Shown here: positions 6,505 to 44,523 of the stretch, one piece after another
How positions within the stretch are numbered: the first letter of the stretch is position 1
How the letters are laid out: every line of letters starts with the position of its first letter
IMG/VR virus record: IMGVR_UViG_3300045988_170943
Span: 352,001-416,000 of that record
Length of the DNA: 64,000 bases
Source: a virus
Strand: one strand, 5' to 3'
The notes under the pieces: model-generated
What the model saw: only the letters and a program-made list of their open reading frames with translations
The model's database searches: none
What the model was told of the DNA's origin: nothing
Made by a program: the position numbers and the translations under genes

Positions 6505-6577
6505 GCCGTTTTAGTTCAATTGGTAGAACGCCTGTCTTGTAAACAGGAGGTCATCGGTTCGATCCCGATAAGCGGCT
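6505..6577 (+). tRNA. tRNA-Thr (anticodon UGU)
   Basis: Acceptor gccgttt/aagcggc, D-arm gttcaattggtagaac, anticodon stem cctgt/acagg with loop ctTGTaa, T-arm atcgg-ttcgatc-ccgat. Confidence 0.75.
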
Positions 6578-6815
6578 CTAGGGCGCACGCTCTCTTTCCT
6601 TCCTTATAGTGTGCGCCCGCCCCCCTTTTTTGGTGTTTCCCCTGGTGTTAAAAGGTGGATAGACTCCCTGCACCCATAACCACCCACACCATATTATGTG
6701 TGATTGTTTTCTCAGTATGGTGCGAGAGTGGAAAAGACAACAGGGTCTTCCTTGTTGGATAAACTAGGTAGCAGCAAATGTCATCTACCACAGAAATCCA
6801 CTAGAGGAGAAACAC

Positions 6816-8110: not shown

Positions 8111-8163
8111 CAAACAGTCAGGTAGGTGTGACACTATTCACACAATACGGCCCCTCCCAGGAG

Positions 8164-8193
8164 TTGACATTCGGGAGGGGCTGTTGATATATT
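8164..8193 (+). promoter_or_regulatory. sigma70-like promoter of tmRNA (TTGACA-18-TATATT)
   Basis: ttgaca at 8164-8169 and tatatt at 8188-8193, 13 nt upstream of the predicted mature tmRNA 5' end. A GC-rich hairpin lies just upstream. Confidence 0.5.
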
Positions 8194-8206
8194 AGAGTCA
8201 CGCCTT

Positions 8207-8582
8207 GGGGCAGACAGGTATTCGACATGCGATGCTTGCTTGTGTTGAGTGCGAGCCACCCTTGAACCATGGGTGTCAAACAGGTTCAAACCAACAGTTG
8301 CCAACTCTGACAACTTCGCTCTCGCCGCCTGAGAGCCGCCTGAATCCCACAAGGTAAGGCCCTGCCGGGACTCAATTCAGGTGTTATCGCTAGGGGCTAT
8401 GGTCAAGCGCCTGTCACCTGGGTGCGGGCCGAGAAACTAAACAGGTGACAACCAGGGTTGTGGTAGTCATGCAGGACCATTCCAAACCTTACATGGTTGT
8501 AAAACACTAACGGATCCTGCTACGCTCGTAGAACTTAAAACAGGCACATTCTTGGACGAGGGTTCGATTCCCTCCTGCTCCA
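8207..8582 (+). ncRNA. ssrA: tmRNA (ssrA), tag peptide (A)ANSDNFALAA
   Basis: The 5' end ggggcagacaggtattcgac matches the tmRNA 5' consensus. It pairs with the 3' acceptor ctgctcc. The 3' tRNA-like domain is ggacgagggttcgattccctcctgctcca. An internal tag reading frame gcc aac tct gac aac ttc gct ctc gcc gcc tga runs 8300-8332. Confidence 0.75.
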
Positions 8583-8789
8583 CTATCCAACCGGGGTGCC
8601 GCCAGTGAGTGATGAAACTGGCGGCACCCCGGCTTCCTGCATATGCTCATGCCAATACCACATTAGGTGGCTACCCCTATCCCAGTGTGTCCATACGTTC
8701 TATCTCCTGTAGCAGTCGATACACTATGAGGTAGCACCTGCCATAACCGATGCGGTACCCCATCACGGCGCCCTACCCTGAGGAGAATC

Positions 8790-13300: not shown

Positions 13301-13448
13301 AATACCAGTAGGAGTAAGGTTAACATAATAATGGTGAACTACAGTGGAATAGGCAGATACAGAACCTATGTCGCGCCTCCACACTAAGAGGACAGACTGG
13401 GATGACAGCATGTGGTGAAACCTTGTACAGGGTGGACGGAGAATACGG

Positions 13449-15534: not shown

Positions 15535-17523
15535 ATGAACCTTACCAGCGTGATCGACAACTACTGCGGCCATGACGAGAAGATCATGGACGAGAACGCA
15601 AACAAGGACAGCAAGGTGTTCGCCACCCAGAGAGACCTTCTGGCCGGGGCAATCAGCAAAGAGTACGCACTAGAGAAACTACTCCCCAAGAACGTCGCCG
15701 AAGCACACAAAAAAGGATGGATACACTTCCACGACCTAGACTACGTACTCAATGCCTCCGGGGGCCTGTTCAACTGTATGCTGATCGACTTCCCCGGAAT
15801 GCTCGCCCACGGGTTCACGCTAGGCAACGCGGAGATCGAACCACCCAAGTCCCTCCACACCGCCGGAGAGGTCATCCCCCAAATCGTTGCCAACGTGTCC
15901 AGCAATATGTACGGAGGTGTCTCTGCACACAGGATAGACGAGTTCCTGGAACCATATGCCATCCTGTCCTACCGGAAACACCTCTGCCGTAACCTCGCCA
16001 GAGCCGCCCAGTACACGGGAGTCACCATCACCCCAACCCAGGTGGCTGCCCTCGCCGAGCACTACGTACAGGCGTGCCCACAGACAGACAACGAGTTCAA
16101 GAACGACACCCCAGCCACCACCCCTGTGCCACCAGGGCAGTCCCCCTTACCCCTGGCGGCACAGGACATAGCCGTCAAGGACGCCATCAGCGACACCGGT
16201 AAGGAAGTCGCAGACACGTGCCAGTCATTGGAGTACGAGTGCATGGCACTCTTCAGTGGAAACGGACAAACCCCATTTTTCACCTTTAACCTGGGGTTGG
16301 GGACCGGCAAGTGGGCGCGCGAGATCCAGAAACACATCCTCAAAGTCAGGATCGAAGGACTCGGCCCTGAGAAACGCACCGCCGTCTTCCCGAAACTTGT
16401 CTACACCCTCAAGGAAAGCCACAACCTAAAACCAGGTGACCCCAACTATGACATCAAGAGACTAGCCGTAGAATGCTCCACCAAACGCATCTACCCTGAC
16501 ATCCTCTCCTATGAGAAAGTCATGGAAATCTATGGCACCTTTGTCTCCCCCATGGGGTGCAGGTCATTCCTCAGTGACTACCGGGACAAGGACGGCAACC
16601 ACGTCACCTATGGTCGTCGAAACATTGGGGTCGTCTCCCTCAACCTCCCCAACATCGCCCTCACTGTGAACACTCCCGACGAGTTCATGACCCTACTTGA
16701 TCAGCGTATCCAGGCGGTCAAGGACGGCCTCATGTACCGTTACAACAGGCTCGCCAGCACCACAGCCAGAAACGCGCCCATCCTCTACCAGTACGGGGCG
16801 ACCGGCCACAGGCTTAACTCCGATGAAACCGTGCAACGAATCTTCAATGACGGTGAAGCCACAGCATCCATTGGGTACGTTGGCCTCCACGAGACAGCAA
16901 CAAGATTCTGGGGTAACGACTGGCAGGACAACCCTGAAGCCAAGAACTTCACCATCCAGGTCCTCCGCCGCCTCAACCACTGGAAGGAAAAGTGGGCAGA
17001 AGAGACCGGTATAGCGTTCTCCGTCTACAGCACCCCAGCAGAATCACTCATCTCACGGTTCGCGGAAATCGACAAGGCAACCTTCGGCAGCATCAAGGAC
17101 ATCACAGACAAAGGCTACTACACCAACTCCTTCCACCTGGACGTCCGCAAGCAAGTCACGCCGTTCGAAAAAATCGACTTCGAGGCAGACTACCCGCCAC
17201 TAGCCGCTGGAGGAAACATCTGCTACGTAGAACAGCCATCCCTCATCAAAAACCCCGACGCCCTAGAAGCCATCTGGGACTACATGCACGACCGGGTTCC
17301 GTTCTCCGGTGTCAACACCCCCATCAGCCGATGCTACAAGTGCAACCACGAAGGAGACTTCGACGCTGACGCACGCGGATTCTACTGCCCCCAGTGCGGA
17401 AACCGCGATCCCCAGCAGTGCGAAGTTGTGGAACGGCTCTGCGGCTACCTCGGATCCGTGTCCATGCGTAAACCCATCAGCGGTCGCGTCAAGGAAATGA
17501 AATCCAGAGTCAAACACCAGTAA
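15535..17523 (+). CDS. nrdD: anaerobic ribonucleoside-triphosphate reductase NrdD (class III RNR)
   Basis: C-terminal glycyl-radical motif RLCGYLGS, preceded by the zinc ribbon CYKCNHEG...YCPQCG. Length 662 aa. RBS aggagg. Confidence 0.85.
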   Translation: MNLTSVIDNYCGHDEKIMDENANKDSKVFATQRDLLAGAISKEYALEKLLPKNVAEAHKKGWIHFHDLDYVLNASGGLFNCMLIDFPGMLAHGFTLGNAEIEPPKSLHTAGEVIPQIVANVSSNMYGGVSAHRIDEFLEPYAILSYRKHLCRNLARAAQYTGVTITPTQVAALAEHYVQACPQTDNEFKNDTPATTPVPPGQSPLPLAAQDIAVKDAISDTGKEVADTCQSLEYECMALFSGNGQTPFFTFNLGLGTGKWAREIQKHILKVRIEGLGPEKRTAVFPKLVYTLKESHNLKPGDPNYDIKRLAVECSTKRIYPDILSYEKVMEIYGTFVSPMGCRSFLSDYRDKDGNHVTYGRRNIGVVSLNLPNIALTVNTPDEFMTLLDQRIQAVKDGLMYRYNRLASTTARNAPILYQYGATGHRLNSDETVQRIFNDGEATASIGYVGLHETATRFWGNDWQDNPEAKNFTIQVLRRLNHWKEKWAEETGIAFSVYSTPAESLISRFAEIDKATFGSIKDITDKGYYTNSFHLDVRKQVTPFEKIDFEADYPPLAAGGNICYVEQPSLIKNPDALEAIWDYMHDRVPFSGVNTPISRCYKCNHEGDFDADARGFYCPQCGNRDPQQCEVVERLCGYLGSVSMRKPISGRVKEMKSRVKHQ

Positions 17524-17547
17524 AGCCCCCGACACAGCAACACGCGA

Positions 17548-17600
17548 GTGCGCCCCACCAGAATGCTATCAGGTTTCTGGGTGGGGCGCACTTATTCTCT
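17548..17600. terminator. bidirectional hairpin terminator between convergent nrdD and HNH genes
   Basis: 12-bp stem gtgcgccccacc/ggtggggcgcac with a 19-nt loop, followed by ttattctct. Confidence 0.5.
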
Positions 17601-17618
17601 GATCTGCAAACCTATAAG

Positions 17619-18632
17619 TCACCTCAGGGACTCCCGCAACTTCATGATCTGACTGTTATAGACACCCCGAATACGCCCAGAGGACCTTCGGTCATAGCGC
17701 CCATCTTCCCCAACCTCAAACTGTTTCATGAACCTGTTAATGTAGTCAATAGACTTCGACACCTTCTTAACCTGCTCAGGAGTCATCTCCTTATACAGGG
17801 CAAACCGGCGGAAACTCTCAATCCTTGACAGAACCTCATCCTTCTTATCCTCAGGGACCCTGCTGGTAGACTGCACCCACTCGTTCAAGTCCTTGTTACG
17901 TCGCTCACTGTTGCAGCCAATACACGCCAGGGCCATATTCCCGTAGCGAGTTGTGCCAGGAGGCGGATTCTTCGGGGTCACTGGTGTCAAATGCTCCCCG
18001 GATGCTGCATGCTCATTACCAACACCCGACTGAAACGGCTTGTGGCAGTAGCAGCAGCGGCCACCAAAGAACATAACCGAGGCAACATACCGCTCACGGG
18101 TCATGTCGTTCATCGCAGACGTCAAGATTATCCTTTGAGGCTGATGACGCCTACCATCATTGCGCCACTCAATTGAGGCCGTCATAGACTTGACGTTAGT
18201 AGCAATGATCCTTGAGAACTCCTTCAAATCGACATCATCACCAAGGAACTCCCTCGTCCTCCTGGCGATTGGATCCTTACTTGACAAGAAAGCGTAAATG
18301 TTTCCCTCCGCTCTCTGAAAACGCCTCTGGAGCCTAGGATCATTCAGCCTGTCCTCAAACTTGCTGTAGAAGTCCCGGATAAACGAATAGTCCTCATGAG
18401 AAAACTGCTCCGCCACAGACTCAACCGACTCATGGAACTCCTTCCGAGTCATGCTTCTACCGTAGTACGAGGACACCATGCCAGGAGTCGGTGTCGCCTT
18501 CTTCAAGGCCACCTCAGTGCTCTGCTCGCCTTCTTGCCGAGCCTTGTTCGTCGATGTCGCCAACGCGCCATGAGCCTTCGCCAGAACCTCCTCATTGAAC
18601 GCCCGGATCGTCGCATCACTAGCGTCACTCAT
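17619..18632 (-). CDS. HNH endonuclease-domain protein (free-standing, homing-endonuclease-like)
   Basis: His-Me finger: CCYCHKPF ... EHLTP ... GNMALACIGCNSERRNK. Start placed at internal Met (MSDASD). Confidence 0.55.
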   Translation of the reverse strand: MSDASDATIRAFNEEVLAKAHGALATSTNKARQEGEQSTEVALKKATPTPGMVSSYYGRSMTRKEFHESVESVAEQFSHEDYSFIRDFYSKFEDRLNDPRLQRRFQRAEGNIYAFLSSKDPIARRTREFLGDDVDLKEFSRIIATNVKSMTASIEWRNDGRRHQPQRIILTSAMNDMTRERYVASVMFFGGRCCYCHKPFQSGVGNEHAASGEHLTPVTPKNPPPGTTRYGNMALACIGCNSERRNKDLNEWVQSTSRVPEDKKDEVLSRIESFRRFALYKEMTPEQVKKVSKSIDYINRFMKQFEVGEDGRYDRRSSGRIRGVYNSQIMKLRESLR

Positions 18633-18973
18633 AATGTGCTGGCCGTGCTTACAGCGGCCCTTACCTACATTCTCCGGTTTCGCCCTGCACAAAGACAAGG
18701 TACCATCAGCGTTCTGCCCAAAACGACGCTCAACAGCCACCACGAACCACACTCCCACAAAATCTCAAACCAGCAAACCCTATCACCCTAGGAATAAAGC
18801 CAGCACACTGTACACGACAGTAAACATTCCTACAGGACATATCTAAAACCACTTGTCCAGAACCAGCCGGACAACACTCCAACAAGCGCCCCTAAGAACG
18901 ACAGGCACCAGAAGACCCAGAGTGTCACCCTTCTCATGCCACAAACCTAGAGCAACGGGCGCAAGGAAGGCCC

Positions 18974-20758
18974 CTACCGGTCCTTACGCCACACAAACGA
19001 GCGCACACCACAATCGAACACCTGCACATACCCCTCCATCTGAAGCACGTCAGCATTCGACACCCTAGAACCATCCTCACGAAACCTCGGATAACGCTCA
19101 CCCACCTCAAACCCCAACAGACGATCCGCACCCACACGCCTTGCAGCAGAATCTCGCACATACGCCGGACCCTCACCACCCACCACACGCACCCACATCG
19201 AGTTAGGCCGCCCCGTACGCTCAGCAACCCAACCCGCAAACATTGACTCCGTACGCCCAGTCCCCGTCGCCAAATCCACATACGACACCACCGACACCGG
19301 GTCCACCTCACGGAAAAACACGCTGTCACACCGGCTGAAACCACCCTGCACATGCCACCCCAGCCGCGAACACGACCGAATAGCCTCCCACTCCACATTA
19401 GACCTGAACCGGGCAGGACCATACGACTGCACATGCACCAAATCCCCCCTATAGGTCAGACCCACACAGAACGTCTGACCATTCGCCGCCCCCAACAAGT
19501 GATTCTCCCGGAAAAACCGGTTCGCATCCGCCTGAGACAACGACACAACCTCACACTCACGAGCCCCAACCGAATACGGGCAAACCCCCAACTTCGCCGC
19601 CACCATAGACGCAAAAATACCCTCATCCATCCAGTCAAAATACTGCATCAACGTCACCCCCGCAGACTCCGCCACAAGTGCACGCTCCTGATGGTGACGA
19701 GGCTCAACCGGCAGATGCCTCTTGCGTCCGCACGAACCAGACTCCACAAACTCTGTACACCTGCCCGTCGCATGAGCAAACGACACCGTACTATTATGCG
19801 AGAACGACGGGTTGACATCCACCAACACACCCCCACACCCAAGATCAGCACACCACACGCCGCCACCATCACCAGCAGACCCGAACGCCACCTCAGTATC
19901 AAACCGGTGCCCAGTGACCTCCTCCAAGCGGGCCTTCCACCCCAGATTCACCTTAGACACGCGCCCACCACTAGCAGCAGCACGCTTTTGAACCTCAGGC
20001 AACTGGAAGATGTTCTCAACCCCATACCTCTCCAACATCGTCACCCGGTTACGCTCCGCAAACCCAGGCGCAGTGAACACACACTCAGAACCATACCGCT
20101 CCAACACAGTAGCACGCCCCCTAGCCTGAACCTCTTTGCTCATCATCGGGCTGCGCACCCCAAACCGCTCCATGAACGTCCGCTCACGCTTAGCACGCAC
20201 CTCAGGAGACAACGAAGGATTCGTCACCCCATAGTGAGCCATCAAAGTCTCAGCCTTCTTCGCCTTCACCTCCTCCACCTGAGACACGTTCTTAACACCA
20301 TACCGCTCCATCACCGTCGCATCATGCTTACGCTGACGATCCTCATAGTCAATGAGCCCCCTGGAACACGCCTTCGAGCACGACAAGGAAGGCTGATACA
20401 CATCCACCTCAAACTCCTTCCCGCACACCACACAAGTACGATAATGCGGGCCAGGACAGTACTTCGCCGTACTCCGGTCAGCAGTGAACTCACGACCACA
20501 CCCATCAAACTGGCAAACACACTCCACCACAGGACGATGCGCACGATAATACACGCCAGAACACTTCTTAGAACAGAACCGCAAAATCTTGACCCCAGGC
20601 TTCCGCTGCAACACCTGCCCACCACAAACCTCACACTCAGTATAGTGCGGGCCAGGACAGAACCGGTTAGTCCTCATCTTCGGAGTGAACTCTTTACCAC
20701 AGAACTCACACTGGCGTACAGGCAGATCGACCACGGAACACACCCCAAAATCAACCAA
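18974..20758 (-). CDS. zinc-ribbon-repeat protein with tandem ERYGV-type repeats (putative homing-endonuclease-associated DNA-binding protein)
   Basis: Three copies of C..C-(~17)-C..C (CEFCGKEF...CEVCG) and at least five ~33-aa repeats (MERYGVKNVSQVEEVKAKK...). No catalytic motif recognised. Confidence 0.45.
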   Translation of the reverse strand: MVDFGVCSVVDLPVRQCEFCGKEFTPKMRTNRFCPGPHYTECEVCGGQVLQRKPGVKILRFCSKKCSGVYYRAHRPVVECVCQFDGCGREFTADRSTAKYCPGPHYRTCVVCGKEFEVDVYQPSLSCSKACSRGLIDYEDRQRKHDATVMERYGVKNVSQVEEVKAKKAETLMAHYGVTNPSLSPEVRAKRERTFMERFGVRSPMMSKEVQARGRATVLERYGSECVFTAPGFAERNRVTMLERYGVENIFQLPEVQKRAAASGGRVSKVNLGWKARLEEVTGHRFDTEVAFGSAGDGGGVWCADLGCGGVLVDVNPSFSHNSTVSFAHATGRCTEFVESGSCGRKRHLPVEPRHHQERALVAESAGVTLMQYFDWMDEGIFASMVAAKLGVCPYSVGARECEVVSLSQADANRFFRENHLLGAANGQTFCVGLTYRGDLVHVQSYGPARFRSNVEWEAIRSCSRLGWHVQGGFSRCDSVFFREVDPVSVVSYVDLATGTGRTESMFAGWVAERTGRPNSMWVRVVGGEGPAYVRDSAARRVGADRLLGFEVGERYPRFREDGSRVSNADVLQMEGYVQVFDCGVRSFVWRKDR

Positions 20759-20860
20759 CAGAAACTACCCAAGTATATCCGCGCACACCCCGGAAGTCAA
20801 GGGATATTCCACCGCAGACACCTCACCTACCACACCAAGACGGAAGAGGCAACACAACCA

Positions 20861-20980
20861 ATGCGCGTCACCTCCATCAAAAAGATAGACCCCAAGCCAT
20901 CACGCTGCATCGAAGTCACCGGAGAAGACCGACTTTTCGCAGCAGGAGGCCAAAACGGCCACTCCATCGTCTCCCACAAC
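20861..20980 (+). other. split intein C-terminal fragment (IntC, 40 aa) with Cys at block F position 4
   Basis: IEVTGEDRLFAA and SIVSHN with +1 Ser parallel gp41-1 (IDIEVSGNHLFYANDILTHN) and Npu DnaE IntC. F-block RCIEV resembles the WCLEV and QCIQV of the two class 3 inteins in this window. Confidence 0.6.
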
Positions 20981-21955
20981 AGCGTTACACAGCGCATCAT
21001 CATTAACAGCGTCATCATGCGCCCCGACAGGTGGCGACTCCTCGGCATCGACCTGAAAAAAGTCGAGTTATCGCGCTACCGCAAATACAGTAACGTCGTC
21101 CTCGGAGTAGCCACCGAGATGGAGGATGCCGTAACAATCCTCAAGTTCGCGCATCAGACCATGATGAAGCGTTACTCAGAGATGGAACAGTTGGGAATCA
21201 ACAACTTCGTCAACCTCCCTGAGCCTGGTTTTTCTCTCATGATCCTAGCCGACGAGATCGGTGAGCTCTTCGGGGCGTCTGGTAATAAATCCGATGAAGG
21301 CAAGGCTAAGGACGCGATGGCTAGCGAGTGTCAGTTCATCGCCGGATCTATTCTTCGTCTAGGCCGTGCTGCGGGTGTTCACATGATTCAGGCTACGCAG
21401 CGCCCTGACGCGAAGTTGATCCCTGGTGAGTCTAAGGCTAACCTGGCAGTTCGCATCAACTGTGGCCGCACAGATTCGACAGCCTCCAGCATGATTCTAG
21501 ACAATAGTGAGGGGACTCGCGTACGCGGCTACCCTCGTGGTCGCTTGTGGTTGCAGATTAATGGCGTGGGGAATCATGCTCAGGGGTTTTGGGCTGATGA
21601 GGACTGGTTGGATGAGTGGTTGGCGTCTAAGGGGCTGAATGCTGATGGTTCGCCTGTGGGTTCTGGGGGGCAGTCTCGTCTTGCTCATTTGGCGAATATG
21701 GGCGATTTTGATGGGACGGATTTGGATACTCAGTCGGGTGTGGATAATGCGTCTGTGATTGAGCGTATTCGTGAGGAGGATGAGTGGGGGTTTGATGATG
21801 AGGAGGGTGAGAGTGATCCTGCTCCAGCGTATGATGATGGCCCTATGGGGCGGCCTGAGTTGGGGTCTGTTGGTAAGGGTAGGGGGGATGCTGTGCGTGG
21901 TGATGGGGAGTGGGATCCGTTGATGCAGTTTGTTGCGGGCGAGAATAATGCCTGA
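20861..21955 (+). CDS. FtsK/SpoIIIE-family ATPase C-terminal half with N-terminal split-intein C-fragment (IntC); Walker A half absent from window
   Basis: Residues 41 onward align to FtsK immediately after the P-loop: IDLKKVEL; Walker B FSLMILADEIG; GVHMIQATQRP; arginine-finger region. The first 40 aa, MRVTSIKKIDPKPSRCIEVTGEDRLFAAGGQNGHSIVSHN followed by S, match IntC of split inteins (blocks F and G, terminal HN). Confidence 0.65.
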   Translation: MRVTSIKKIDPKPSRCIEVTGEDRLFAAGGQNGHSIVSHNSVTQRIIINSVIMRPDRWRLLGIDLKKVELSRYRKYSNVVLGVATEMEDAVTILKFAHQTMMKRYSEMEQLGINNFVNLPEPGFSLMILADEIGELFGASGNKSDEGKAKDAMASECQFIAGSILRLGRAAGVHMIQATQRPDAKLIPGESKANLAVRINCGRTDSTASSMILDNSEGTRVRGYPRGRLWLQINGVGNHAQGFWADEDWLDEWLASKGLNADGSPVGSGGQSRLAHLANMGDFDGTDLDTQSGVDNASVIERIREEDEWGFDDEEGESDPAPAYDDGPMGRPELGSVGKGRGDAVRGDGEWDPLMQFVAGENNA

Positions 21956-22191
21956 GTTATTTGTGGTGGTCTAGAGCTTTGCCTGAGGTAGTGCCTGTCG
22001 GCTTGTGGGGCGTGTTCTATAGGCTGGCGGGCGCCTTCCTTTCGCCTTGAGTGTGTAGGGTGCGTCTTCTGGGGTGTAGGTGCGCGCGGCTGCCATCAAG
22101 GGTCGCGGGGTGTCTGTGATTCTGGCCAGGGGTTGGGGTGTTTGTGTGTCTGGTGGCGGTTTTCCTTCCCCTTTGCTTGTGTTGCTCCTTG

Positions 22192-22220
22192 TTGACTTTG
22201 TGGTGGTTTGATGGTAGTGT
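22192..22220 (+). promoter_or_regulatory. sigma70-like promoter (TTGACT-17-TAGTGT)
   Basis: Located in the GT-rich intergenic region upstream of the Cas4-like gene. Confidence 0.35.
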
Positions 22221-22287
22221 GTTGGGCGGTTTAGTGTAGTGTGCGCCCTGTCTTGGCGTGCTGGCTTGGAGGTTTGTGGTGTCTGAG

Positions 22288-24243
22288 ATGTTGCAGGGGC
22301 CGTTGTTTGAGCAGGGTCTTGTTGCGATGACTGATGCGGGTCTGCGTATTGAGGATGAGGAGATCAGTGCGGCGTTTGACCGTAAGTCGTTGAGCCCGTC
22401 ACTGGTGTCGTCTGTTGTGGATGAGAATGCGTGTATGGCTCGTATGCTGGCTTCGTCGTTTGTGGTTGATCGACTGGTGACGCCTCCGGTGGATACGGAT
22501 GCGTCTAGGGGGTCGATGTTTCATAAGGTGATGGAGGAGTTTTTCTCTCTTCCTCCTGAGGGGCGCACGAATGAGGGTATGAATCAGGCGTTCCGGGAGG
22601 TGTTGGCGTCGGATAAGTTCAGGGACCTTGGGGGCATCCCGGATGCGCGGGACTGGCTTGTGCGGGCTGTTCAGGGCTATTTCAAGATGGGGTCTAAGCC
22701 TGATAGGGTGCGGGTGGCTGAACTGGATGTGGGGCATGGTGCGCGCCCTGGCCTTGAGGTTTTTGTGAAGGGGCAGATTGGTGCAGCGTCTCGCCCTACT
22801 TTGGGGTTTGTTGACCGCGTGACTGTGGACCCTAGGGATGGTAAGTCTTTGGTGGTGGAAGACTATAAGGGGCTGGCTCTGGATACTCCGATCCCTACTC
22901 CTTATGGCTGGTCAACAATGGGAAGTCTCAGGGTGGGGGATTTTGTGTTGGGGACGACTGGGGCCTGTAGGGTGACGGTGAAGTCGAGTGTGCATTATGG
23001 TCGGCCTTGCTTCCGGGTGGGGACTGCTGATGGTGGGGCCTTGGTGGCGGATAATGTGCACTTGTGGTATGTGGCTCTCGTTCCGCCGGGAGGTTTTGGT
23101 GGTGGCGTGGTTGAGTATGCGGTCATCAGCACTGAGCGTATGGCTGAGTTTGTGCGTGCAGGATACCTGGTGTTTGTTCCTTCCCCTGACCCGTGGGAGC
23201 CTAAGGCTACTGTTGGCGGTGGCACTGTGAACAGTGTTAGTGGCGGCAGTGTTGACGGTGGGCGCTCTGTGGGGTTCTACTATGGCATGTCGCTGGGGCT
23301 CATGGACAGTGGTAACCTTGACCGGTATATTCAGGCTCACGGCAGTGCGGGCGGCGAGTTCTCCATGATTGAGGTGGCGGACCGTGCACTGGCTGGCACC
23401 ATGGATAACATTTTCGTGATCCCAGCCAATATACGGCGGGACATCATTGACGGCATTATTCACGTGTCCACCATAGAGGCGCCAGCGGACACTCCAGCAG
23501 GGTTGCGTGGTTTCAGGTGGCTGCGGTTCAATGAGTCACCTGACGGGCCTAAGGCTATTTCCACGATCCTTCTTGATCTCATGTACTTGTCTGGGATGTC
23601 CCCCATGCGCGTATTCGACCGCTCCCTAGATGACGGTAGGGGTGTGACTGAGATTGTGGTACGGGACGACCTGTACGCGCACCCACTAGGCATGGAACCT
23701 GGCTGGTGCATGGATGATGGCCTGGACGGTGGCTGGCGTGAGATCACCGTGGTTGAGGCTGTTGACTCTGTGCCCACCCAGTGCATCCAGGTGGACTCCC
23801 CCGACAGCCTCTATCTTGCTGGGCGCACCATGATCACCACACACAACACGGGCAAGGTGAAGAGGTGGAAACCAAACACGAAGGGCGACAAGGGTCTGGC
23901 TGAGCAGCGGCAGCAGACCATCTACTCAATGCTTCTGGAACAGCACGGATTCGAGGTGTCAGCAGCCAGACTCATCTACCCCGTCTATGGCGAGATCGTG
24001 AACGTCAACAAGAATGACGAATGGCTACGCAACCGGGTCGTGGAAGACATTGAACGGGCCGACGTCCTCATGAAGGCGTGCCGGGACGAGAACCTGTTCG
24101 AGTACTCACCATCATTCCTTTGCGCATGGTGCCCGCTAGCAAAACTGTGCCCCGTCGCAGACATCAAAGGCGGAAAATGCCAGGTAGCCTTCCAGAAGCA
24201 GCCAGAGCCAGAACAACTACTTGCGGGGATCAAGATTCGATGA
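22288..24243 (+). CDS. Cas4/RecB-family PD-(D/E)XK nuclease with 4Fe-4S cysteines, interrupted by a class 3 intein
   Basis: Exteins carry GFVDRVTVD (motif II), VVEDYK-TGK (motif III, restored after removing the insert), QQTIY (Q..Y) and C-terminal CAWCPLAKLCP plus an N-terminal Cys. Start is probably ATG 22288 (RBS ggagg). The ORF track starts at GTG 22258. Confidence 0.65.
   Translation: MLQGPLFEQGLVAMTDAGLRIEDEEISAAFDRKSLSPSLVSSVVDENACMARMLASSFVVDRLVTPPVDTDASRGSMFHKVMEEFFSLPPEGRTNEGMNQAFREVLASDKFRDLGGIPDARDWLVRAVQGYFKMGSKPDRVRVAELDVGHGARPGLEVFVKGQIGAASRPTLGFVDRVTVDPRDGKSLVVEDYKGLALDTPIPTPYGWSTMGSLRVGDFVLGTTGACRVTVKSSVHYGRPCFRVGTADGGALVADNVHLWYVALVPPGGFGGGVVEYAVISTERMAEFVRAGYLVFVPSPDPWEPKATVGGGTVNSVSGGSVDGGRSVGFYYGMSLGLMDSGNLDRYIQAHGSAGGEFSMIEVADRALAGTMDNIFVIPANIRRDIIDGIIHVSTIEAPADTPAGLRGFRWLRFNESPDGPKAISTILLDLMYLSGMSPMRVFDRSLDDGRGVTEIVVRDDLYAHPLGMEPGWCMDDGLDGGWREITVVEAVDSVPTQCIQVDSPDSLYLAGRTMITTHNTGKVKRWKPNTKGDKGLAEQRQQTIYSMLLEQHGFEVSAARLIYPVYGEIVNVNKNDEWLRNRVVEDIERADVLMKACRDENLFEYSPSFLCAWCPLAKLCPVADIKGGKCQVAFQKQPEPEQLLAGIKIR
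22870..23847 (+). other. class 3 intein (326 aa, WCT signature, Gly at position 1)
   Basis: Block A GLALDTPI; block B ADNVHLW (Trp at B12); block F TQCIQVDSPDSLYLAG (Cys at F4); block G MITTHN with +1 Thr (Thr at G5). Confidence 0.65.
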
Positions 24244-24836
24244 GGAAAGCAAAAACAGTTGAAGTGCCAGACCGTGAACTCACCTTCGACGAGTTTGAGA
24301 AACTACGCAAGCACGCCCTGAACTCGGCCACCTGGTATGTGGACAGGTACCAGTGGTCCAGGAACAGGGTCAGACAGCGGCTCGCCGAGAAGGGCTACAC
24401 CACGGAACCAGTCACCTACCGGGACCCAGGTGGCACCACCCACACGTGCGACATCATTGAGGAGACCCTGGCTGCGCTACCCTCCAAAGGTGTCCTGGAT
24501 GACACTGACATCGCATCAAGCCGGGTCTGGTCACTCATGGACTCGGGGAAGAGCGCGCGATTCGTCACCACAAGGCTCAGACAGCGCGGATTCATGGACT
24601 CCGACATTCAGGCCGCCATCAACGACTACCTGGGCCACAACCCAGGCCACGATGAGGATGTTGTGGACCGTGCCGCCACGAAGTACGTCAACCGGTCGGC
24701 TTTCCGGGGTGAGCCTGACATGTACAGGCGGGCCCAAAAACTGAAAGCCCACATGATGTCCAAGAGTATCGACCTGGACAGTGTTGACACCTGGATCGCA
24801 GAGCACCCAGAGTACTTCACAGAGGACAACAACTAG
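24240..24836 (+). CDS. recX: RecX-like regulatory protein
   Basis: Repeated helical RecX motifs (L..KG..dD..fA......G..I...L..KGi). ATGA start/stop overlap with the upstream gene. Confidence 0.5.
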   Translation: MRKAKTVEVPDRELTFDEFEKLRKHALNSATWYVDRYQWSRNRVRQRLAEKGYTTEPVTYRDPGGTTHTCDIIEETLAALPSKGVLDDTDIASSRVWSLMDSGKSARFVTTRLRQRGFMDSDIQAAINDYLGHNPGHDEDVVDRAATKYVNRSAFRGEPDMYRRAQKLKAHMMSKSIDLDSVDTWIAEHPEYFTEDNN

Positions 24837-25089
24837 AACAAGGAAGCGGCCGCACCCACCCCGCCTACTCTCCTGTGTAGTGGGCCATAGTGCGTCACTT
24901 ACGCTGTCACCCCCACCCTGCCATGTGCGCCCCAACACCCCGGTTCTGCGGCCTGTGAACCTGCTGGCTGATAATGCCCACACCAGGCACTCTAAAACCC
25001 AGCGGGGGTTCCGCTACCCCTGCTGTCGGTAGAATCCGCACGCTGACAAAGAAATACACCCACAGGGGAAGGGATTGAACACTCGCTGA

Positions 25090-26619
25090 CTAGGTTGGAG
25101 ATCCTCTAGAATCTAGGGTTTCCCTCACCATCATCAGCGTCGCCTCGGTTTTTCTTTCCGAGGTACCAGTGTGTCCCTGGATTCCACTCAGGGCAGTGAC
25201 CGGTTTCGACTGTCGCGTAACAGTCGAACTTCGCTCTAGCGCCCTCTGGCGAAGCAGAGAACGCATTCTATCACGGTTTCTCGTGCTTGAGATAGCACGC
25301 AAGGCAATCTCTCTAGATGCCGAGATGTCACGATCCAGTGAGAAACCACAGGTAGTGCAGGTACCGACCCTACTCTTCGAGTTGTTCGATACCTTACCAC
25401 CGCAGCGAGAGCAGGTCTTTGAGGTGTTCTTGGCGCTCACCTTGGTTACTTTAATCCCGTAGCGCTTAGCAGTTTTCTCTATCCTGTGCTGTATCTCAGC
25501 ATGAGGCCACCTACCACCCAAAGCGTCAAGCCAGGACAGGTTCTCCAGAGACAGATGAGCATCGCTCTTATTAGCGATTTCCACTACCTGGCTGGCGATA
25601 CACTGACTGATCTCATGCTTTATCCTGGTAGCCTTAGCACCGACTCGCTTCGCCTCAGTCCTGAGAATCTGAGCACGCTGGGCTCGGTTGTATCTCTCAC
25701 AGAGGTCCGCTCGTTCGTACAGATGAGCAGATAAATCACGACGTTTCTTCTCTGCCCTAACTAGAGAACCGAGCCACCTCTTGTAACTAACGTAATACGG
25801 AGCAGACCTGTACTTAGCCTCAGGATCTATGACGGTAGTGACGAACGGCTCTACCTTACCCAGGTCAACGCCTACAATCTTGTTGGTGTCTCGCTGATGC
25901 ACCTTGCGCTCGATAGCGATGTCAAAGACAACCTGGCCCTTGTCGTTCAGTCTGATAGTTGGGCGACATACCTTACCATCACCAAAGCGTGACTCATTAT
26001 CTGGAAGTCTGAAGTAGAGTCTAGTAAGACCGTTACTTGGCGTCTTGACCTGAACGATGACACTCAACGGATCGCTGTCGTCTCGAACTGCCTTAGGTGC
26101 GAAGTAGGTGTCACACACAGCCAGGTTCAGTTTGGCGTTCACTCCAGGTAGAGACGCCTTCCTCTCGCCTTTGACGTGATAGCGCCTCAGGTGAGCGCGG
26201 ATCATTCCACTGGTCGGCTGCGGAGCATCAGGATAAGCGACCTTGTAGCAGGAGAGGATCTTTTCTGGCTTGGTCTCCTTAGGGTGAGTGTTCATTACCT
26301 GAAACAGGCCAACTGAGACAGCATAAGACTCTAGAGCGCCAACTATATTGGTGATCAGCATCTCATTCATGTTGTGCTTCTGAAACTCAAAGTCGTAACG
26401 ACTAAGGCGTTTACGACCCCAGGAGTTCAGAGAACCGGTCGGCCTGCCACCCCGTAGAACTTTCACTGCCAGGTCATGAAACTCTGAACCGGCAAGCACC
26501 TCCTGCTCAGCCTGAGCCATCCAAGCAACCATCTGAGCCAGATCAGCACTCACTGAGTCAGCGTCAACTCCATCGTCAGTGGTGAACCTGTGCCTAGTCA
26601 CAGCGTCATAGTACTTCAC
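25090..26619 (-). CDS. tnpB: TnpB (IS605 OrfB family) second, divergent copy
   Basis: VGVDLG (RuvC-I) and SKTCSRCGG...CTTCGFSLDRDISASREIALRA (RuvC-III plus zinc finger). Confidence 0.8.
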   Translation of the reverse strand: MKYYDAVTRHRFTTDDGVDADSVSADLAQMVAWMAQAEQEVLAGSEFHDLAVKVLRGGRPTGSLNSWGRKRLSRYDFEFQKHNMNEMLITNIVGALESYAVSVGLFQVMNTHPKETKPEKILSCYKVAYPDAPQPTSGMIRAHLRRYHVKGERKASLPGVNAKLNLAVCDTYFAPKAVRDDSDPLSVIVQVKTPSNGLTRLYFRLPDNESRFGDGKVCRPTIRLNDKGQVVFDIAIERKVHQRDTNKIVGVDLGKVEPFVTTVIDPEAKYRSAPYYVSYKRWLGSLVRAEKKRRDLSAHLYERADLCERYNRAQRAQILRTEAKRVGAKATRIKHEISQCIASQVVEIANKSDAHLSLENLSWLDALGGRWPHAEIQHRIEKTAKRYGIKVTKVSAKNTSKTCSRCGGKVSNNSKSRVGTCTTCGFSLDRDISASREIALRAISSTRNRDRMRSLLRQRALERSSTVTRQSKPVTALSGIQGHTGTSERKTEATLMMVRETLDSRGSPT

Positions 26620-26762
26620 AGGTTCACCTCCCTTGGGTTGACTAGCATAGATGTGTGTATTGTAACATAGAGTGAGCGATGCTACAAGTCAAGGAATTAG
26701 CGCGACTGCGGGCGACGGTCAGCGTTTTCAATGGCCACTATTCCCAGCAAGTGACCCTTCCA

Positions 26763-27650
26763 CTACTTGAGTTGCGGCACCCCAAACCATGCCATGTGGC
26801 CGACAGACACGAGAATCACCAGCATCAGGATCCCAGTCACAAGCCACTTCTCTGCGTCTCCTCCCGCCTCCATCTTCGTAAACCGTGTCGTCCACCAGAA
26901 CTTGCCAAACAGGATCGCCGACAAGGGGAAGAACAGAGGGTCACCATAGGTGGTGAATGCGTCCCCAATGTCGTGGATGAGCATACCGGCGAACAGGGAT
27001 ATACCAAGCCACCTGAAGTCAGTGACACCAGATGAGATGATCAAAGACCCTGTACCAACAGCACACAGGGCAACGAGCATGACTGCACCCACAATGGGAG
27101 TCTTCTTCATCTTGTCAGTTTGCTTCTTCAGCAAAGTGGAGACAGTCAGGATCACAAGGACGGTGGACAGGAACCAGGCAAACAGCACCCCATAGGTTAA
27201 CTTCCCGACACCAGGGACGTTAACCATGCTAGATGCTTTTGTCGCCAAGTACACGAGGTAGGAGACGACCGCCGCGAGGAATGGCGTGTGCCAGACTCCA
27301 CGGTGAGGGTTCGGGTCGGGGTCGTCACGCCTAGTGCGGATCACTGTCTGAAGTATCTTAGAGGACCAACGGAAGAACAGGCTCAGGACGTTACCAAGGA
27401 TACCTAGGTCATTGATGGCTCTGGCGCTCGTATTGTCCAGGTCGGGGACGAGTGTAGCCCCAATCGTGCACAGGAACGCTAACGTAAGGATGGCGACGCT
27501 ACCAGTTCCGAGGGTGGAGACTAGACTGGTGGGCGCGAATGCGAGGATAGCGGCCATGGCAGCCAGGCCACTGAGAGCGTGTGTAAAACCCATAAACCCG
27601 TGGTCGTTGCAGTGGTTTCGGGTTCTAAGTGCCTGAGTCCAGCATTCCAT
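26763..27650 (-). CDS. polytopic membrane protein (possibly membrane-bound metal-dependent hydrolase family)
   Basis: 295 aa with about 7 hydrophobic segments. The hydrolase guess rests only on scattered His and Asp residues. Confidence 0.35.
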   Translation of the reverse strand: MECWTQALRTRNHCNDHGFMGFTHALSGLAAMAAILAFAPTSLVSTLGTGSVAILTLAFLCTIGATLVPDLDNTSARAINDLGILGNVLSLFFRWSSKILQTVIRTRRDDPDPNPHRGVWHTPFLAAVVSYLVYLATKASSMVNVPGVGKLTYGVLFAWFLSTVLVILTVSTLLKKQTDKMKKTPIVGAVMLVALCAVGTGSLIISSGVTDFRWLGISLFAGMLIHDIGDAFTTYGDPLFFPLSAILFGKFWWTTRFTKMEAGGDAEKWLVTGILMLVILVSVGHMAWFGVPQLK

Positions 27651-27821
27651 TGGTGGCTCATTCCTGTTGTCGTAAGAAAAGTGTTTACTGGCGGGAATAT
27701 CTTGGGGGATTCCCTTCTCACTCTGTTCTCAGTGCCCACCCTGTACCTGTAGAAGGGAGGGTGGGCACTGAATGTGCGTTCGTGAGTCACATGTGTCTAT
27801 GGGTGCGTGACTCATGGACAC

Positions 27822-30335
27822 CTACTTGGAGGCGCCCAACATGATCTTCTCGCCGATCTCGGTGCCGCGTGCTGACCTCTTCGCCACCTCCGGCAGGGCA
27901 ACAACCATGTGGGTCCCCGTGGTCTTGCATGCGACTGGGGCTGGTCCAGTGTAGGCGACGGAGAGGTGATCCTCACCCTTGCGGAACAACTGGGCTGCGA
28001 CTCCCTGCCCGCCGCGACCCTTCCTGGGGATGTCAGCCAGTAGGGTTTGTTTAACACTGGCCCCAGTGCTGGTAACCACCATGTTACCATCCTCATCTGG
28101 GTTACGTAGCCAGTTGAAGTGGATCACCCTATCTTCATTGCCCTTCAACTGGACACCCTTGACTCCACCGGCCTTTGACCCGGTTGGGTTCACTGCTGCG
28201 GCGTCAAACAAGAGAACATTGCCGCCACTGGTCACCATGGAGAACAGGGTACCGCCCGTATCTTGGTCAACCCACCTGGACCCAACAATCTCGTCACCGT
28301 CCTTCAGGGAGATCACAGGGAACTCGTCGAAACTGGTGGGAAAGTCGGTGCGGGCGACCTTCACCACGCCCCCCTTAGTGCCTATCGCCAGCCCCACCTC
28401 ACCATCACCTGACTGCACCTTACTGATGCCGACAACACGCACACCAGTCGGGGCCTTTACACCTAGTTTCTCCGAAGTGGTGGGTGCGTCATCGGTCAGA
28501 TAATTCACTGGGATCTTGTGGCCAGTGCCATCACTGTGAACAATCACGAAACTATCCTGACTCATCACCTGGATCTGGTCCAGGATCGGCGTATACTGTA
28601 CCTTCCTCGGGCCGTCACCATAGGTGAAGGCATCCATGGTACGGGTCAGGGTGCCATCCTGGAACAAAGTCACGTAACAAGGAGTGTTACTGGAGGCTGC
28701 TTTAATCTCCTGTCGGACTGCCTGACGGTCCTCCTTGAACTGGTCTTTCGTGATCCCGTTGATGACGGTACGCCTGGGGCTGCTGATGATTTTCTTCACC
28801 GCCACCAGGTCGGCCTCCACCACCCGATCCAATTCGGCCGGGTCTTCAAGGATCTGCTCCATGCGTGCCCGCTCCTTCACAAGGTCGCTCTTCTCTCGCT
28901 GGATGGCAATAGAGTCCGACCGTGTGAGCCGCCTAAGCCTCATCGACAGAATGAAATCAGCCTGACCAGCGTCAATGCGGAACGCCTTCATCAACTTACG
29001 TCTGGCTACATCCGTGTCCTTCGACTCACGAATGATGGCGACGGCCTTGTCAATGTCGATCAGGACTGCGAGGATGCCGTCAAGGCGGTGCAGGCGGGCG
29101 TCAATCTGGGTGATTCGGTGGCGGCTTCTCGCAGCAGTGCAGTCACGACGGAGATCCACAAAGTTCCGCAGCATTTCTAGGACACTGATACGCTGCGGGA
29201 CGGACTGGTTGATGACTGTGCAGTTCACGGAGAACGACGTCTGAAGGTCCGTCTCATTGAACAGTTCGTTTAACAGGGCCTTGTAGTTGCCCCCCTTCGT
29301 GGTAGTAACAACGAACCTGAGACCGTGACGTTTATCGGACAGATCCTTCGCCTCAGACAGGTTCCTGGCGACCACTGGGTTCGCTTTCGTCGTCTCCTTG
29401 TGTTTCTTCCCGTTCCGGGTGACCTCCCGCACCCTGTCAACCCGAATCTGGTTGATCTTTTCCAGCACGGACTCCGCAGACACCATGTAAGGCAACTCAA
29501 AGAAACTGATCTCGGTGCGTCCTCTGGGTAGTTGCTCCACCTTGTAACGGGCACGCGTCAGGAACGACCCCCTGCCCGTGGTGTAGTAGTCGCGTATCCC
29601 GTCCACACCGATCACTTCACCACCAGTGGGCAGATCCGGGCCGGGCATGATCTTCATGAGTTCATCCACCCCCAGGTCCGGGTTATGTAGAGTGGCGATA
29701 GCGGCATCGATTACCTCGTCAGGGTTATGGGCCGGGATCTTGGACGCGAAACCCACAGCAATACCAACAGTGCCGTTCACCAGGTCGTTCGGCCACCTGA
29801 CAGGAAGAATCTTCGGGATCTGCTCAGTGCCATCATAGTTGGGGATCATCTCGACAGCCCCCTCCCCGGCCTCCTTGAGAAGTTCCATCGCCGCCTTCGT
29901 GAGCCTGGCCTCCCAGTACCGGGGTGCGGCAGGCTGGTCCCCATAGGTGTGGCCCACGGACCCGGATTTGTCGATCAGGGGCACCCTCAATGAGAATGTC
30001 TGCGCCATACGCGCCAAGGCGTCCGAGATAGAGGAGTCACCATGCGGGTGGAACCGGCCCATGGTACTGCCCACGATCCTAGATGCCTTCGTGAACCCTG
30101 ACGTGGGCAGGTTGTTGTTCGTGAACATGTCCCACAGGATACGCCGGTTCACTGGCTTCAGGCCGTCCGCCTCCAGTAGGGCGCGGTGGAACACGGCGTA
30201 CTGGCCGTAAACAATGTACTCGCTCTTCAGCCACCTGTGCGCCGGAGTACGGTTGATCTGTGCGGCGATCTTGTCAATGACAGCGGGGTTGATCATACTA
30301 CCTTGGCCTTCTTCACCGTTGTTAGAATTGGTCAT
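27822..30335 (-). CDS. gyrA: type II topoisomerase A subunit (GyrA/ParC-like) with C-terminal beta-pinwheel
   Basis: RILWDM, SRIVGSTMGRFHPHGDSSISDALARMAQTFSLRVPLID and the active-site Tyr in AAPRYWEARL. Start uncertain (30296, 30335 or 30404). No GyrB partner within the window. Confidence 0.75.
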   Translation of the reverse strand: MTNSNNGEEGQGSMINPAVIDKIAAQINRTPAHRWLKSEYIVYGQYAVFHRALLEADGLKPVNRRILWDMFTNNNLPTSGFTKASRIVGSTMGRFHPHGDSSISDALARMAQTFSLRVPLIDKSGSVGHTYGDQPAAPRYWEARLTKAAMELLKEAGEGAVEMIPNYDGTEQIPKILPVRWPNDLVNGTVGIAVGFASKIPAHNPDEVIDAAIATLHNPDLGVDELMKIMPGPDLPTGGEVIGVDGIRDYYTTGRGSFLTRARYKVEQLPRGRTEISFFELPYMVSAESVLEKINQIRVDRVREVTRNGKKHKETTKANPVVARNLSEAKDLSDKRHGLRFVVTTTKGGNYKALLNELFNETDLQTSFSVNCTVINQSVPQRISVLEMLRNFVDLRRDCTAARSRHRITQIDARLHRLDGILAVLIDIDKAVAIIRESKDTDVARRKLMKAFRIDAGQADFILSMRLRRLTRSDSIAIQREKSDLVKERARMEQILEDPAELDRVVEADLVAVKKIISSPRRTVINGITKDQFKEDRQAVRQEIKAASSNTPCYVTLFQDGTLTRTMDAFTYGDGPRKVQYTPILDQIQVMSQDSFVIVHSDGTGHKIPVNYLTDDAPTTSEKLGVKAPTGVRVVGISKVQSGDGEVGLAIGTKGGVVKVARTDFPTSFDEFPVISLKDGDEIVGSRWVDQDTGGTLFSMVTSGGNVLLFDAAAVNPTGSKAGGVKGVQLKGNEDRVIHFNWLRNPDEDGNMVVTSTGASVKQTLLADIPRKGRGGQGVAAQLFRKGEDHLSVAYTGPAPVACKTTGTHMVVALPEVAKRSARGTEIGEKIMLGASK

Positions 30336-44508: not shown

Positions 44509-44523
44509 TCAGCCAGGACCGGC

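Follow-up and report, generated by a model that had tools for sequence, protein, structure and literature searches.

The strand skew of a phage genome is usually weak, extends genome-wide, and serves only as a rough guide to origins. Here we describe two local, bipolar skew domains in a 64,000-nt stretch of a ~420-kb phage genome from human oral metagenomes—IMG/VR record IMGVR_UViG_3300045988_170943, positions 352,001-416,000, hereafter the window, whose own coordinates are used throughout. Domain A is centred within an FtsK-like gene and includes a G/T-rich island that runs into the intein of a Cas4-like nuclease gene; domain B, which is larger, is centred in non-coding DNA near 52.6 kb. In the literature searched, we found no description of local, near-saturated, bipolar skew domains in phage genomes.

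In kind and magnitude, the closest analogue is the asymmetry between the heavy (H) and light (L) strands of animal mitochondrial DNA, which Xia reportedly reviewed in 2012; the H strand is G/T-rich and the L strand A/C-rich, which is attributed to deamination of C and A while H is single-stranded. As in mitochondria, one strand of the phage domains is rich in keto bases (G and T) and the other in amino bases (A and C), by way of both C>T and A>G changes; the bias is most extreme at synonymous sites, with third codon positions here reaching 94-100% G/T; genes on the minority strand have mirror-image codon usage; amino acids are dragged along; and composition changes gradually with position. Unlike the mitochondrial asymmetry, that of the phage is local (2-11 kb per arm) and bipolar, and occupies two domains within 32 kb of a ~420-kb double-stranded DNA genome.

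In polarity, the nearest parallel is the origin-centred skew of bacteria and some huge phages. Arakawa and Tomita are said to have treated, in 2012, the replication-associated skew of bacterial chromosomes. Such skew changes sign at the origin, with a leading strand rich in G and T, and replichore-wide values are typically below 0.2. The domains described here share with it the change from negative to positive, the joint change of GC and AT skews, and an apparent independence of gene orientation; they depart from it in that GC skew reaches 0.76 and AT skew -0.72, and in that the skew fades within 2-11 kb without running to a terminus. Replication-type skew has been found in ~30% of huge phages (Al-Shayeb et al. 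2020, PMC7162821).

In scale and mirror symmetry, the best match is R-loop-linked skew at bidirectional promoters. Ginno and colleagues reportedly described, in 2013, R-loop-associated GC skew downstream of CpG-island promoters, mirrored where the promoters are bidirectional. The phage skew is likewise kilobase-scale and would be promoter-proximal, its G-rich strand is the non-template strand for most genes in the arms, and it is mirror-symmetric about divergent gene starts; self-reinforcement would also be possible, with G-rich RNA stabilizing R-loops. Here, however, T exceeds A as strongly as G exceeds C, domain A switches sign within a coding sequence, genes in the opposite orientation conform to the DNA strand around them, and the genome is that of a prokaryotic virus.

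Linear viral genomes copied by strand displacement (adenovirus, phi29-type) are also said to be skewed, the subject of a 1999 article by Grigoriev in Virus Research. The likeness is that a displaced strand gains deamination transitions and that the skew is graded with single-stranded time; however, the switch in those genomes lies mid-genome with a terminus-like polarity and replication starts at the physical ends, whereas the centres here are internal and are read straight through in contigs of several independent assemblies.

Domain A: a G/T-rich island and its mirror arm

We use GT3 for the G+T (keto) fraction at third codon positions. In plus-strand genes the baseline GT3 has a mean of 0.42 (standard deviation 0.11, range 0.16-0.74; 668 windows of 50 codons). 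Along the FtsK-like gene, successive 50-codon blocks give 0.14, 0.30, 0.54, 0.66, 0.66, 0.98, and 0.96—the island values of 0.94-0.98 lie far beyond the baseline range—and along the Cas4-like gene they give 0.92, 0.94, 0.82, 0.82, 0.82, 0.78, 0.68, 0.52, 0.58, 0.60, 0.50, 0.38, and 0.32. The best single change point falls at 21535 in the former (GT3 0.41 to 0.94) and at 23217 in the latter (0.85 to 0.50); each was reached by 0 of 1000 permutations. A first-pass annotation of the sequence had reported a switch in codon usage midway through the FtsK-like gene, a switch back inside the Cas4 intein, and an island spanning the intergenic region between them, and all of this holds, the spacer at 21956-22278 being 76% G+T. 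Third-position composition is anything but uniform, and the sliding profile that the annotation had proposed as a check confirms a keto skew that is bipolar and stronger than it had noted. The genes around domain A, and the parts of the domain itself, are as follows.

15535-17523, + strand: NrdD
17619-18743, - strand: HNH-like gene
18974-20758, - strand: DUF7487 homing-endonuclease-like gene (Pfam DUF7487, E-value 2.9e-22)
20861-21955, + strand: FtsK-like gene, 364 aa (independent gene calls; Pfam FtsK_SpoIIIE)
22279-24243, + strand: Cas4-like PD-(D/E)xK nuclease gene (N-extein 22279-22869)
24240-24836, + strand: RecX-like gene
25090-26619, - strand: TnpB
17000-18600: weak outer shoulder of left arm A, with the 3' end of NrdD (+) and the HNH-like gene (-); third positions A/C-rich on the + strand
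18600-21150: left arm A, + strand A/C-rich and - strand G/T-rich (+ strand G+T 0.27-0.38)
21150-23900: right arm A (the island), + strand G/T-rich (G+T 0.63-0.76; plateau 21.54-23.1 kb, decay 23.1-23.9 kb)

Right arm A contains the 3' part of the FtsK-like gene, the spacer, the Cas4-like N-extein, and the N-terminal part of the intein. GT3 is 0.88-1.00 at 21536-22500, 0.72-0.88 up to 23.25 kb, and 0.32-0.4 by 23.9 kb; several 25-codon blocks in the interval 21.6-22.4 kb lack A and C altogether at third positions. The island is a strand skew rather than a GC shift, because G+C content stays at 0.52-0.61 across it. Its boundaries had been called sharp, which is true of the step at 21536 only; the edges are otherwise ramps of ~0.65-0.8 kb (20.9-21.55 kb and 23.1-23.9 kb), the right one lying ~80-140 codons into the Cas4 intein.

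The island's coordinates, as first noted, are good; what had been missed is the A/C-rich mirror arm on its left, along with the bipolar nature of the 52.6-kb region. Left arm A contains the DUF7487 gene, a spacer (20759-20860, 27% G+T), and the first ~100 codons of the FtsK-like gene. On the plus strand, third-position keto content is 0.06-0.20 across DUF7487 and 0.14 in FtsK codons 1-50, and the skew of domain A changes sign, crossing 0.5, at ~21.15 kb within the true FtsK gene. The mid-gene switch is a switch inside a real gene (20861-21955); the 867-aa open reading frame (ORF) at 19352-21955, by contrast, does not correspond to a single gene. Over its first 1.5 kb it shadows the DUF7487 gene in antisense and translates to low-complexity sequence rich in P, R, H, and T, and independent gene callers place the FtsK start at 20861.

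In the outer shoulder, plus-strand third positions have a keto content of ~0.16-0.18 where NrdD ends and 0.26-0.36 within the HNH-like gene. Compared with the strain L010, the latter gene and part of NrdD (17200-18400 and 16000-16600) differ by only 0.3-1%, against 5-9% in the flanks, a contrast that indicates recent exchange between strains. Since the HNH-like gene is near-identical between strains whose flanks have diverged, the alignment suggests that it arrived recently and is still short of equilibrium. Left arm A, where the skew is strong, has a sharp outer edge, and divergence jumps at that same place (18.45 kb). Separately, three stretches are hypervariable among strains (18800-19000, 20400-20600, and 22000-22200; 38-75 variable columns per 100); two of these are intergenic and one lies in the N-terminal part of DUF7487, where it may be a swapped segment or an alignment problem.

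Domain B: a second, larger domain

The T-ending codon style was also noted at 54.6-55.0 and 58.5-64 kb, and GT3 there is indeed 0.85, 0.77, and 0.85 in three genes and 0.62 in two. These genes belong to a second bipolar pattern, with arms of 8-11 kb as compared with 2-3 kb in domain A.

44500-52560: left arm B, + strand increasingly A/C-rich toward 52.5 kb
52545-52842: core of domain B, 300 bp straddling the sign change (three-strain alignment)
52690-63500: right arm B, + strand G/T-rich (G+T up to 0.87 in non-coding DNA at 53.8-54.3 kb, ~0.6 by 59-63 kb)

Left arm B contains mostly minus-strand genes, one plus-strand gene (50287-50784), and non-coding DNA at ~51.6-52.56 kb. Its plus-strand G+T drops from ~0.45-0.5 to 0.21 at 52.35 kb, and plus-strand third-position keto content is 0.26, 0.32, and 0.31 in three of its genes. 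The sign change is abrupt, at 52.62-52.69 kb, with the flip occurring within ~150 bp. Beyond right arm B, the next 10 kb, as read in strain L021, are at baseline composition.

The core has only two variable positions (near 52626-52629) between the window and two other strains, while the region around it diverges by ~6-8% and its flanks are indel-rich in the three strains; an essentially invariant 300-bp block placed on the switch points to a cis-acting element, a candidate origin, pair of promoters, or packaging signal. An inverted repeat (52528-52554 and 52801-52827; 27-nt arms, 93% complementary) partly overlaps the core, and the palindrome TGTGCGCACA and its variants cluster at 52872-53511, with three copies spaced 298 bp apart. 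The 8-mer GTGTGCGC(A) occurs five times in right arm B; GTGTGCGC also stands 25-55 nt upstream of the Cas4, DUF7487, and 39072-start genes, in gene orientation, and may be a promoter or operator element.

Folding of the core as DNA or RNA was not significantly better than that of shuffled sequence (z -1.6 and -0.8), and a scan for sigma-70 promoters at domain B found nothing. No known RNA was found in the non-coding region at 51-58.6 kb with Rfam (gathering and E-value modes) or tRNA scans. Scanning viral contigs with the domain B palindrome motif matched only one strain of the same phage, and a homolog search with the C-extein of the PilT-like ATPase, aimed at a distant domain B, returned only short contigs and bacterial PilT proteins.

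Some further observations concern the genes and spacers of this domain. About 3 kb at 51600-54600 have no convincing coding signal, the substitutions not being codon-periodic (17/11/14 and 14/15/14), and carry short repeated hairpin-like units such as GTGAAGCGTCAGCGGAGCGGAACCCC at 53247 and 53586. The minus-strand gene at 47659-50070 encodes an 803-aa protein, with coding supported by an excess of third-position substitutions (37/46/83); its N-terminal ~400 aa are of low complexity and rich in G, R, S, and V, while the C-terminal half is ordinary, and the low-complexity half was probably shaped by the G/T-rich coding strand. Within right arm B, an adenine methyltransferase of the MT-A70 family is encoded at 58532-59320 (+; Pfam E-value 4.7e-28).

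Composition and strand dependence of the arms

Read in their G/T-rich orientation, the four arms have one composition: A 0.10-0.145, C ~0.175, G 0.38-0.42, and T 0.29-0.33. GC skew goes from negative to positive and AT skew from positive to negative both at ~21.15 kb and at 52.62-52.69 kb, with 300-bp windows reaching the 0.76 and -0.72 quoted above, and the switch positions are identical in five related strains. The skew is strongest in non-coding DNA (0.76-0.87 G+T), followed by third codon positions (up to 1.00) and then by first and second positions (0.54-0.66). It has also shifted the amino-acid composition of the proteins that the arms encode—G, V, W, C, L, and F make up 0.35-0.38 of their residues and 0.21-0.30 of those in orthologs, apart from one FtsK ortholog at 0.33.

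The skew appears to follow the DNA strand and not the coding strand, because genes that run against the prevailing direction match the strand around them. In left arm A the plus-strand genes—FtsK codons 1-50 (0.14) and the 3' end of NrdD (0.16-0.18)—are the lowest among the 668 baseline windows, and the minus-strand DUF7487 gene between NrdD and FtsK is a G/T user. In right arm B, the minus-strand genes at 61174-61533 and 61829-62236 have plus-strand third-position keto contents of 0.57 and 0.65, against 0.39-0.49 for minus-strand genes elsewhere; their substitutions by codon position (11/3/22 and 1/3/8) show a good coding signal. Set against replication-type skew, then, the sign change is present and the skew follows the strand in the few genes that speak to this, while whole-replichore extent is absent.

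The arms contain 6.6-7.1 palindromes of 6 bp per kb, and the controls 7.6-8.8. Restriction-site avoidance was rejected as an explanation, since the controls are even more depleted relative to expectation than the arms.

Relatives and substitution dynamics

Four independent assemblies (L001-L004) of the same ~419-kb contig family are 100% identical to the window across 14-22 kb, and are for that reason uninformative about substitutions. Strains at 90-94% nucleotide identity show the same profile (L010-L012 for domain A, L018 and L019 for domain B), and the skew is common to every strain examined. Two IMG/VR viral genomes (394 kb and 201 kb) are ~94% identical to the window. Among deposited phages there is no close relative: a megablast search of 19-25 kb against INPHARED gave no match, and the protein matches to FtsK and Cas4 are distant, all below 60% identity. 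FtsK and Cas4 are syntenic core genes, in the same order in relatives. Relatives with 54-72% FtsK identity (GC 34-54%) have no extreme skew at the syntenic locus, and among the genomes sampled there the extreme skew is confined to one species-level lineage. A weak FtsK shift in the same direction (+0.11 to +0.22 GT3) is seen in L013, L005, and L007, in which the upstream genes are divergent.

Substitutions were polarized by majority rule on three-lineage alignments. Transitions dominate, and on the G/T-rich strand C>T and A>G exceed their reverses 1.4-3.4-fold per site over all sites, so that the deamination signature which the first-pass annotation had suggested looking for is present. In the left arms the bias takes the mirror-image form, and in flanking controls the rates are close to symmetric. 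Third positions show it more strongly: the island's per-site rates are 0.353 for A/C>G/T and 0.058 for the reverse (6-fold), the DUF7487 arm has a mirror-image bias of 4-fold, domain B behaves similarly, and the bias of the controls is much weaker.

These rates predict an equilibrium keto fraction of 0.86 at island third positions, where 0.88 is observed; for the other three arms, predicted and observed values are 0.20/0.12, 0.32/0.25, and 0.75/0.80, the small shortfalls lying in the direction of a known parsimony artefact. In the island and right arm B, forward changes are about as numerous as reverse ones; the left arms have a modest surplus of reverse changes, again as the artefact would produce. 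Synonymous divergence is 0.09-0.17 in the arms, in line with 0.11-0.13 in controls. On this evidence we take the skew to be at substitution equilibrium, without any increase in rate. The domains are neither decaying nor the product of a burst, because the skew is shared by strains, is at equilibrium, and comes with a normal rate; on the scale of strain divergence they are old, on that of genus-level divergence young, and they are still maintained. Local strand-specific hypermutation, one of two causes first proposed for the island, therefore has the right direction—the C>T and A>G bias on the G/T-rich strand—but the wrong tempo, since there was no burst, the rate is normal, and the counts balance or nearly do.

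The substitutions in the arms show no preference for TC or CC (APOBEC-like) contexts. Transitions at CpG are raised 2-2.7-fold relative to other C/G sites, on both strands. CpG itself is depleted: over arms at 18.6-23.1 and 47.5-58.5 kb, its observed/expected ratio is 0.95 for left arm A and 0.58-0.77 for the other three, compared with 0.85 in a control. The CpG pattern may be a trace of cytosine methylation, or of some other lesion specific to CpG, in this phage.

Origin of the domains

The island is best read as one arm of a bipolar strand-asymmetric substitution domain, which arose in place and is at equilibrium. As to mechanism, we see an even chance that a deamination-type asymmetry acts around two fixed zones of recurrent single-strandedness, whether origin-like initiation zones or R-loop zones. 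On the strand that runs 5' to 3' away from ~21.15 and 52.65 kb, T has been gained from C and G from A. That strand would be single-stranded repeatedly and for prolonged periods as it leaves each centre, and its exposed C and A would deaminate to give C>T and A>G. The centres would be zones where DNA synthesis starts and a strand is displaced for a few kb before it is copied; an R-loop or a nick might act as primer. Initiation would be spread over ~0.65 kb within a cluster of replication genes in domain A, and confined to a sharply defined site in the 3-kb non-coding region in domain B. Several settings could produce such exposure: bidirectional leading-strand synthesis from the centre with lagging-strand synthesis delayed, strand displacement primed by a nick or R-loop, break-induced synthesis across a recurrent break, or the non-template strand of divergent transcription units. 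A narrower proposal, which we advance only tentatively and by analogy, is that the domains are footprints of mitochondrion-like, D-loop- or R-loop-primed strand-displacement initiation zones in a huge phage; initiation would then be diffuse along the FtsK ramp (~0.65 kb), and the 300-bp core at 52.6 kb would serve as a defined origin. Resection of a double-strand break at a homing-endonuclease site was rejected, by reasoning alone, because its 3' tails would give the opposite polarity; break-induced synthesis across such a break would give the polarity observed.

Several findings weigh against recurrent single-strandedness at initiation zones. Classical origin skews are replichore-wide, and this one is local (2-11 kb). 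A single sharp origin would not predict a plateau of 0.54-0.66 at 21.16-21.53 kb that gives way to values above 0.9 in a step at 21536. The independence from gene orientation is based on few genes, and two of the counter-oriented ORFs have little coding evidence. Domains A and B share no element of at least 12 nt, and DnaA boxes occur at chance frequency without enrichment. Relative to controls, the forward class of substitutions is up and the reverse class down, which fits selection or biased gene conversion equally. Finally, the window has no native divergent gene junctions other than those at the two domains, and L009 and L016, in which the neighbours are co-oriented and there is no divergent FtsK junction, show no FtsK shift; for these last reasons, a transcription-linked cause fits nearly as well.

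Transcription-associated asymmetry alone is the strongest of the alternatives, although we regard it as rather doubtful. Strong divergent promoters would lie at the centres, and the non-template strand would be exposed over the first 2-10 kb and deaminate there, possibly in R-loops stabilized by G-rich RNA, with no need for a role of replication. This would account for the junctions and for the weak FtsK shift, which tracks divergent upstream genes (present in L005, L007, and L013, absent in L009 and L016). It also agrees with the direction of most arm genes, which point away from the centre so that their coding strand is the G/T-rich one, with the positions of GTGTGCGC upstream of three gene starts and in right arm B, and with a kilobase-scale, promoter-proximal decay that reportedly characterizes R-loop-linked GC skew at bidirectional promoters. 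However, domain A changes sign 300-680 nt into the FtsK gene and not at the spacer; the 5' end of FtsK and the 3' end of NrdD, although transcribed rightward, carry the composition of the leftward arm; the counter-oriented genes at 61.2-62.2 kb follow the DNA strand; and right arm A fades midway through Cas4 although the operon runs on through RecX. Dominant antisense or read-through transcripts would keep transcription compatible with all of these. We favour a cause at the level of DNA over a purely transcriptional one because of the sign change inside a coding sequence, the A/C usage of the FtsK 5' and NrdD 3' ends, and the counter-oriented genes of domain B.

Selection or biased gene conversion favouring G/T on one strand, with no mutational asymmetry, is improbable. 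Possible targets of selection would be GU-rich transcripts, a codon choice tuned to a temporal tRNA pool, or a signal at the level of DNA; the 13 tRNA genes of the phage could be seen in that light, as could the faster favoured and slower disfavoured substitution classes. But the skew is strongest in non-coding DNA, and selection on codons cannot explain spacers at 76-87% G+T; the pattern recurs in mirror image on the other strand beyond each centre, genes of opposing orientation conform to the DNA strand, protein composition shifts along with it, and palindrome avoidance is no stronger in the arms than elsewhere.

Mosaic recombination with a differently composed relative was the other cause first proposed for the island, and we consider it very improbable whether the G/T-rich stretch is thought to have come by recombination or by homing-endonuclease co-conversion. 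Homing-endonuclease-like genes (DUF7487 and HNH-like) and inteins do flank the island, divergence between strains is mosaic (16.0-16.6 and 17.2-18.4 kb are near-identical to L010, with the jump at 18.45 kb), and GT3 has its step at 21536. Against this, G+C is unchanged, the arm spans syntenic core genes, four arms of the same composition form two mirror pairs, and the arms are common to every strain while the sampled relatives lack this composition at the locus. Imported DNA would decay toward the genome average, and no such decay is seen; in-place substitution rates reproduce the composition, and the match of equilibrium to observation therefore disfavours import.

Episodic enzymatic hypermutation by a DNA deaminase (APOBEC-like, TadA-like, or toxin-type) or a diversity-generating system is scarcely credible: the excess classes are both deamination transitions and the phage encodes a zinc-dependent deaminase-fold protein (5689-6156, +, in the tRNA region), but this protein was rejected as the editor since it best matches dCMP deaminase/ComEB-type families, below curated cut-offs (TadA E-value 0.004), and the balanced or nearly balanced counts, normal synonymous divergence, presence of the pattern in all strains, and context effects limited to CpG on both strands all speak against it.

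A probable fractured FtsK-like gene, inteins, and spurious reading frames

The FtsK-like gene opens with a 40-aa split-intein C-fragment (20861-20980; MRVTS...CIEV...IVSHN/S, the slash marking the junction) that ends exactly at the P-loop serine. The gene lacks the Walker A half, and the Pfam FtsK_SpoIIIE match begins at profile position 53. The N-terminus resembling an intein C-fragment (IntC) matches the C-terminal block of the Cas4 intein (E-value 7e-5) and is kept in 17 of 17 aligned FtsK homologs that cover the region, down to 54% identity, from contigs of 400-680 kb. We read this as a probable fractured gene with a split intein, with splicing predicted. In 2009, Dassa and colleagues reportedly described, in Nucleic Acids Research, fractured genes joined by split inteins, with free-standing endonuclease genes adjacent. 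The present arrangement is similar in that the C-fragment stands at the start of the gene and the DUF7487 endonuclease-like gene lies directly upstream on the opposite strand; it differs in that the N-terminal half of FtsK and its intein N-fragment gene were not found within the 64-kb window.

The insert in the Cas4-like gene is described by the following entry.

22870-23847, + strand: class-3 intein, 326 aa (phmmer against PDB 6BS8, E-value 2.5e-24)

Both its N-terminal block (residues 2-67) and its C-terminal block (291-326) align to PDB 6BS8, whose chain is named replicative DNA helicase and which we take to be the mycobacterial DnaB1 class-3 mini-intein. The sequence has G1, then ...CIQVD..., then ...TTHN/T, as expected of class 3; the insert is accordingly classed as a class-3 intein that is predicted to splice. 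A non-Cys first residue is normal for class-3 inteins, and the idea that it was a product of hypermutation was rejected. The Cas4 proteins of relatives are 318-347 aa long and have no intein insert. A second class-3-type intein (352 aa, 45181-46236) follows the P-loop GSGK of a PilT/T2SSE-like ATPase (44524-47385, -); it ends ...CLEVD...VPTHN/T and is similar to the Cas4 intein in both its N-terminal and its C-terminal block.

The skew strips stop codons from the A/C-rich strand, and each of the four arms has many long spurious ORFs as a result, those at 51.2-52.9 kb and 53.9-56.5 kb among them.

Neighbouring genes

The first part of the window (1-8585) holds an array of 13 tRNA genes, including four tRNA-Leu, three tRNA-Thr, and two tRNA-Arg, and a tmRNA gene with the tag peptide ANSDNFALAA. 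Two TnpB (Cas12f-like) genes (11702-13348 and 25080-26728) are insertions relative to strain L010, and the YdjM-GyrA segment beside the second of them (26729-30316) is inverted relative to L010 and to the more distant L009 and L016. The young divergent junctions made by the TnpB insertions and the YdjM-GyrA inversion show no skew.

Significance

Within a single gene, synonymous sites go from 14% to 98% G/T; the pattern is mirrored, occurs twice, and comes with a 4-6-fold substitution bias that alters proteins. The domains have practical consequences for annotation, as they generate spurious long ORFs on the A/C-rich strand (the 867-aa "FtsK" ORF is an example), distort predictors of codon usage and horizontal transfer, and bias phylogenies of the affected genes. 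If the cause is transcriptional, this would be an unusually strong prokaryotic case of mutational asymmetry driven by transcription or R-loops. If it is single-strandedness at initiation zones, the sites of initiation, and the distance over which a strand is exposed, would be readable from the sequence of an uncultured phage alone.

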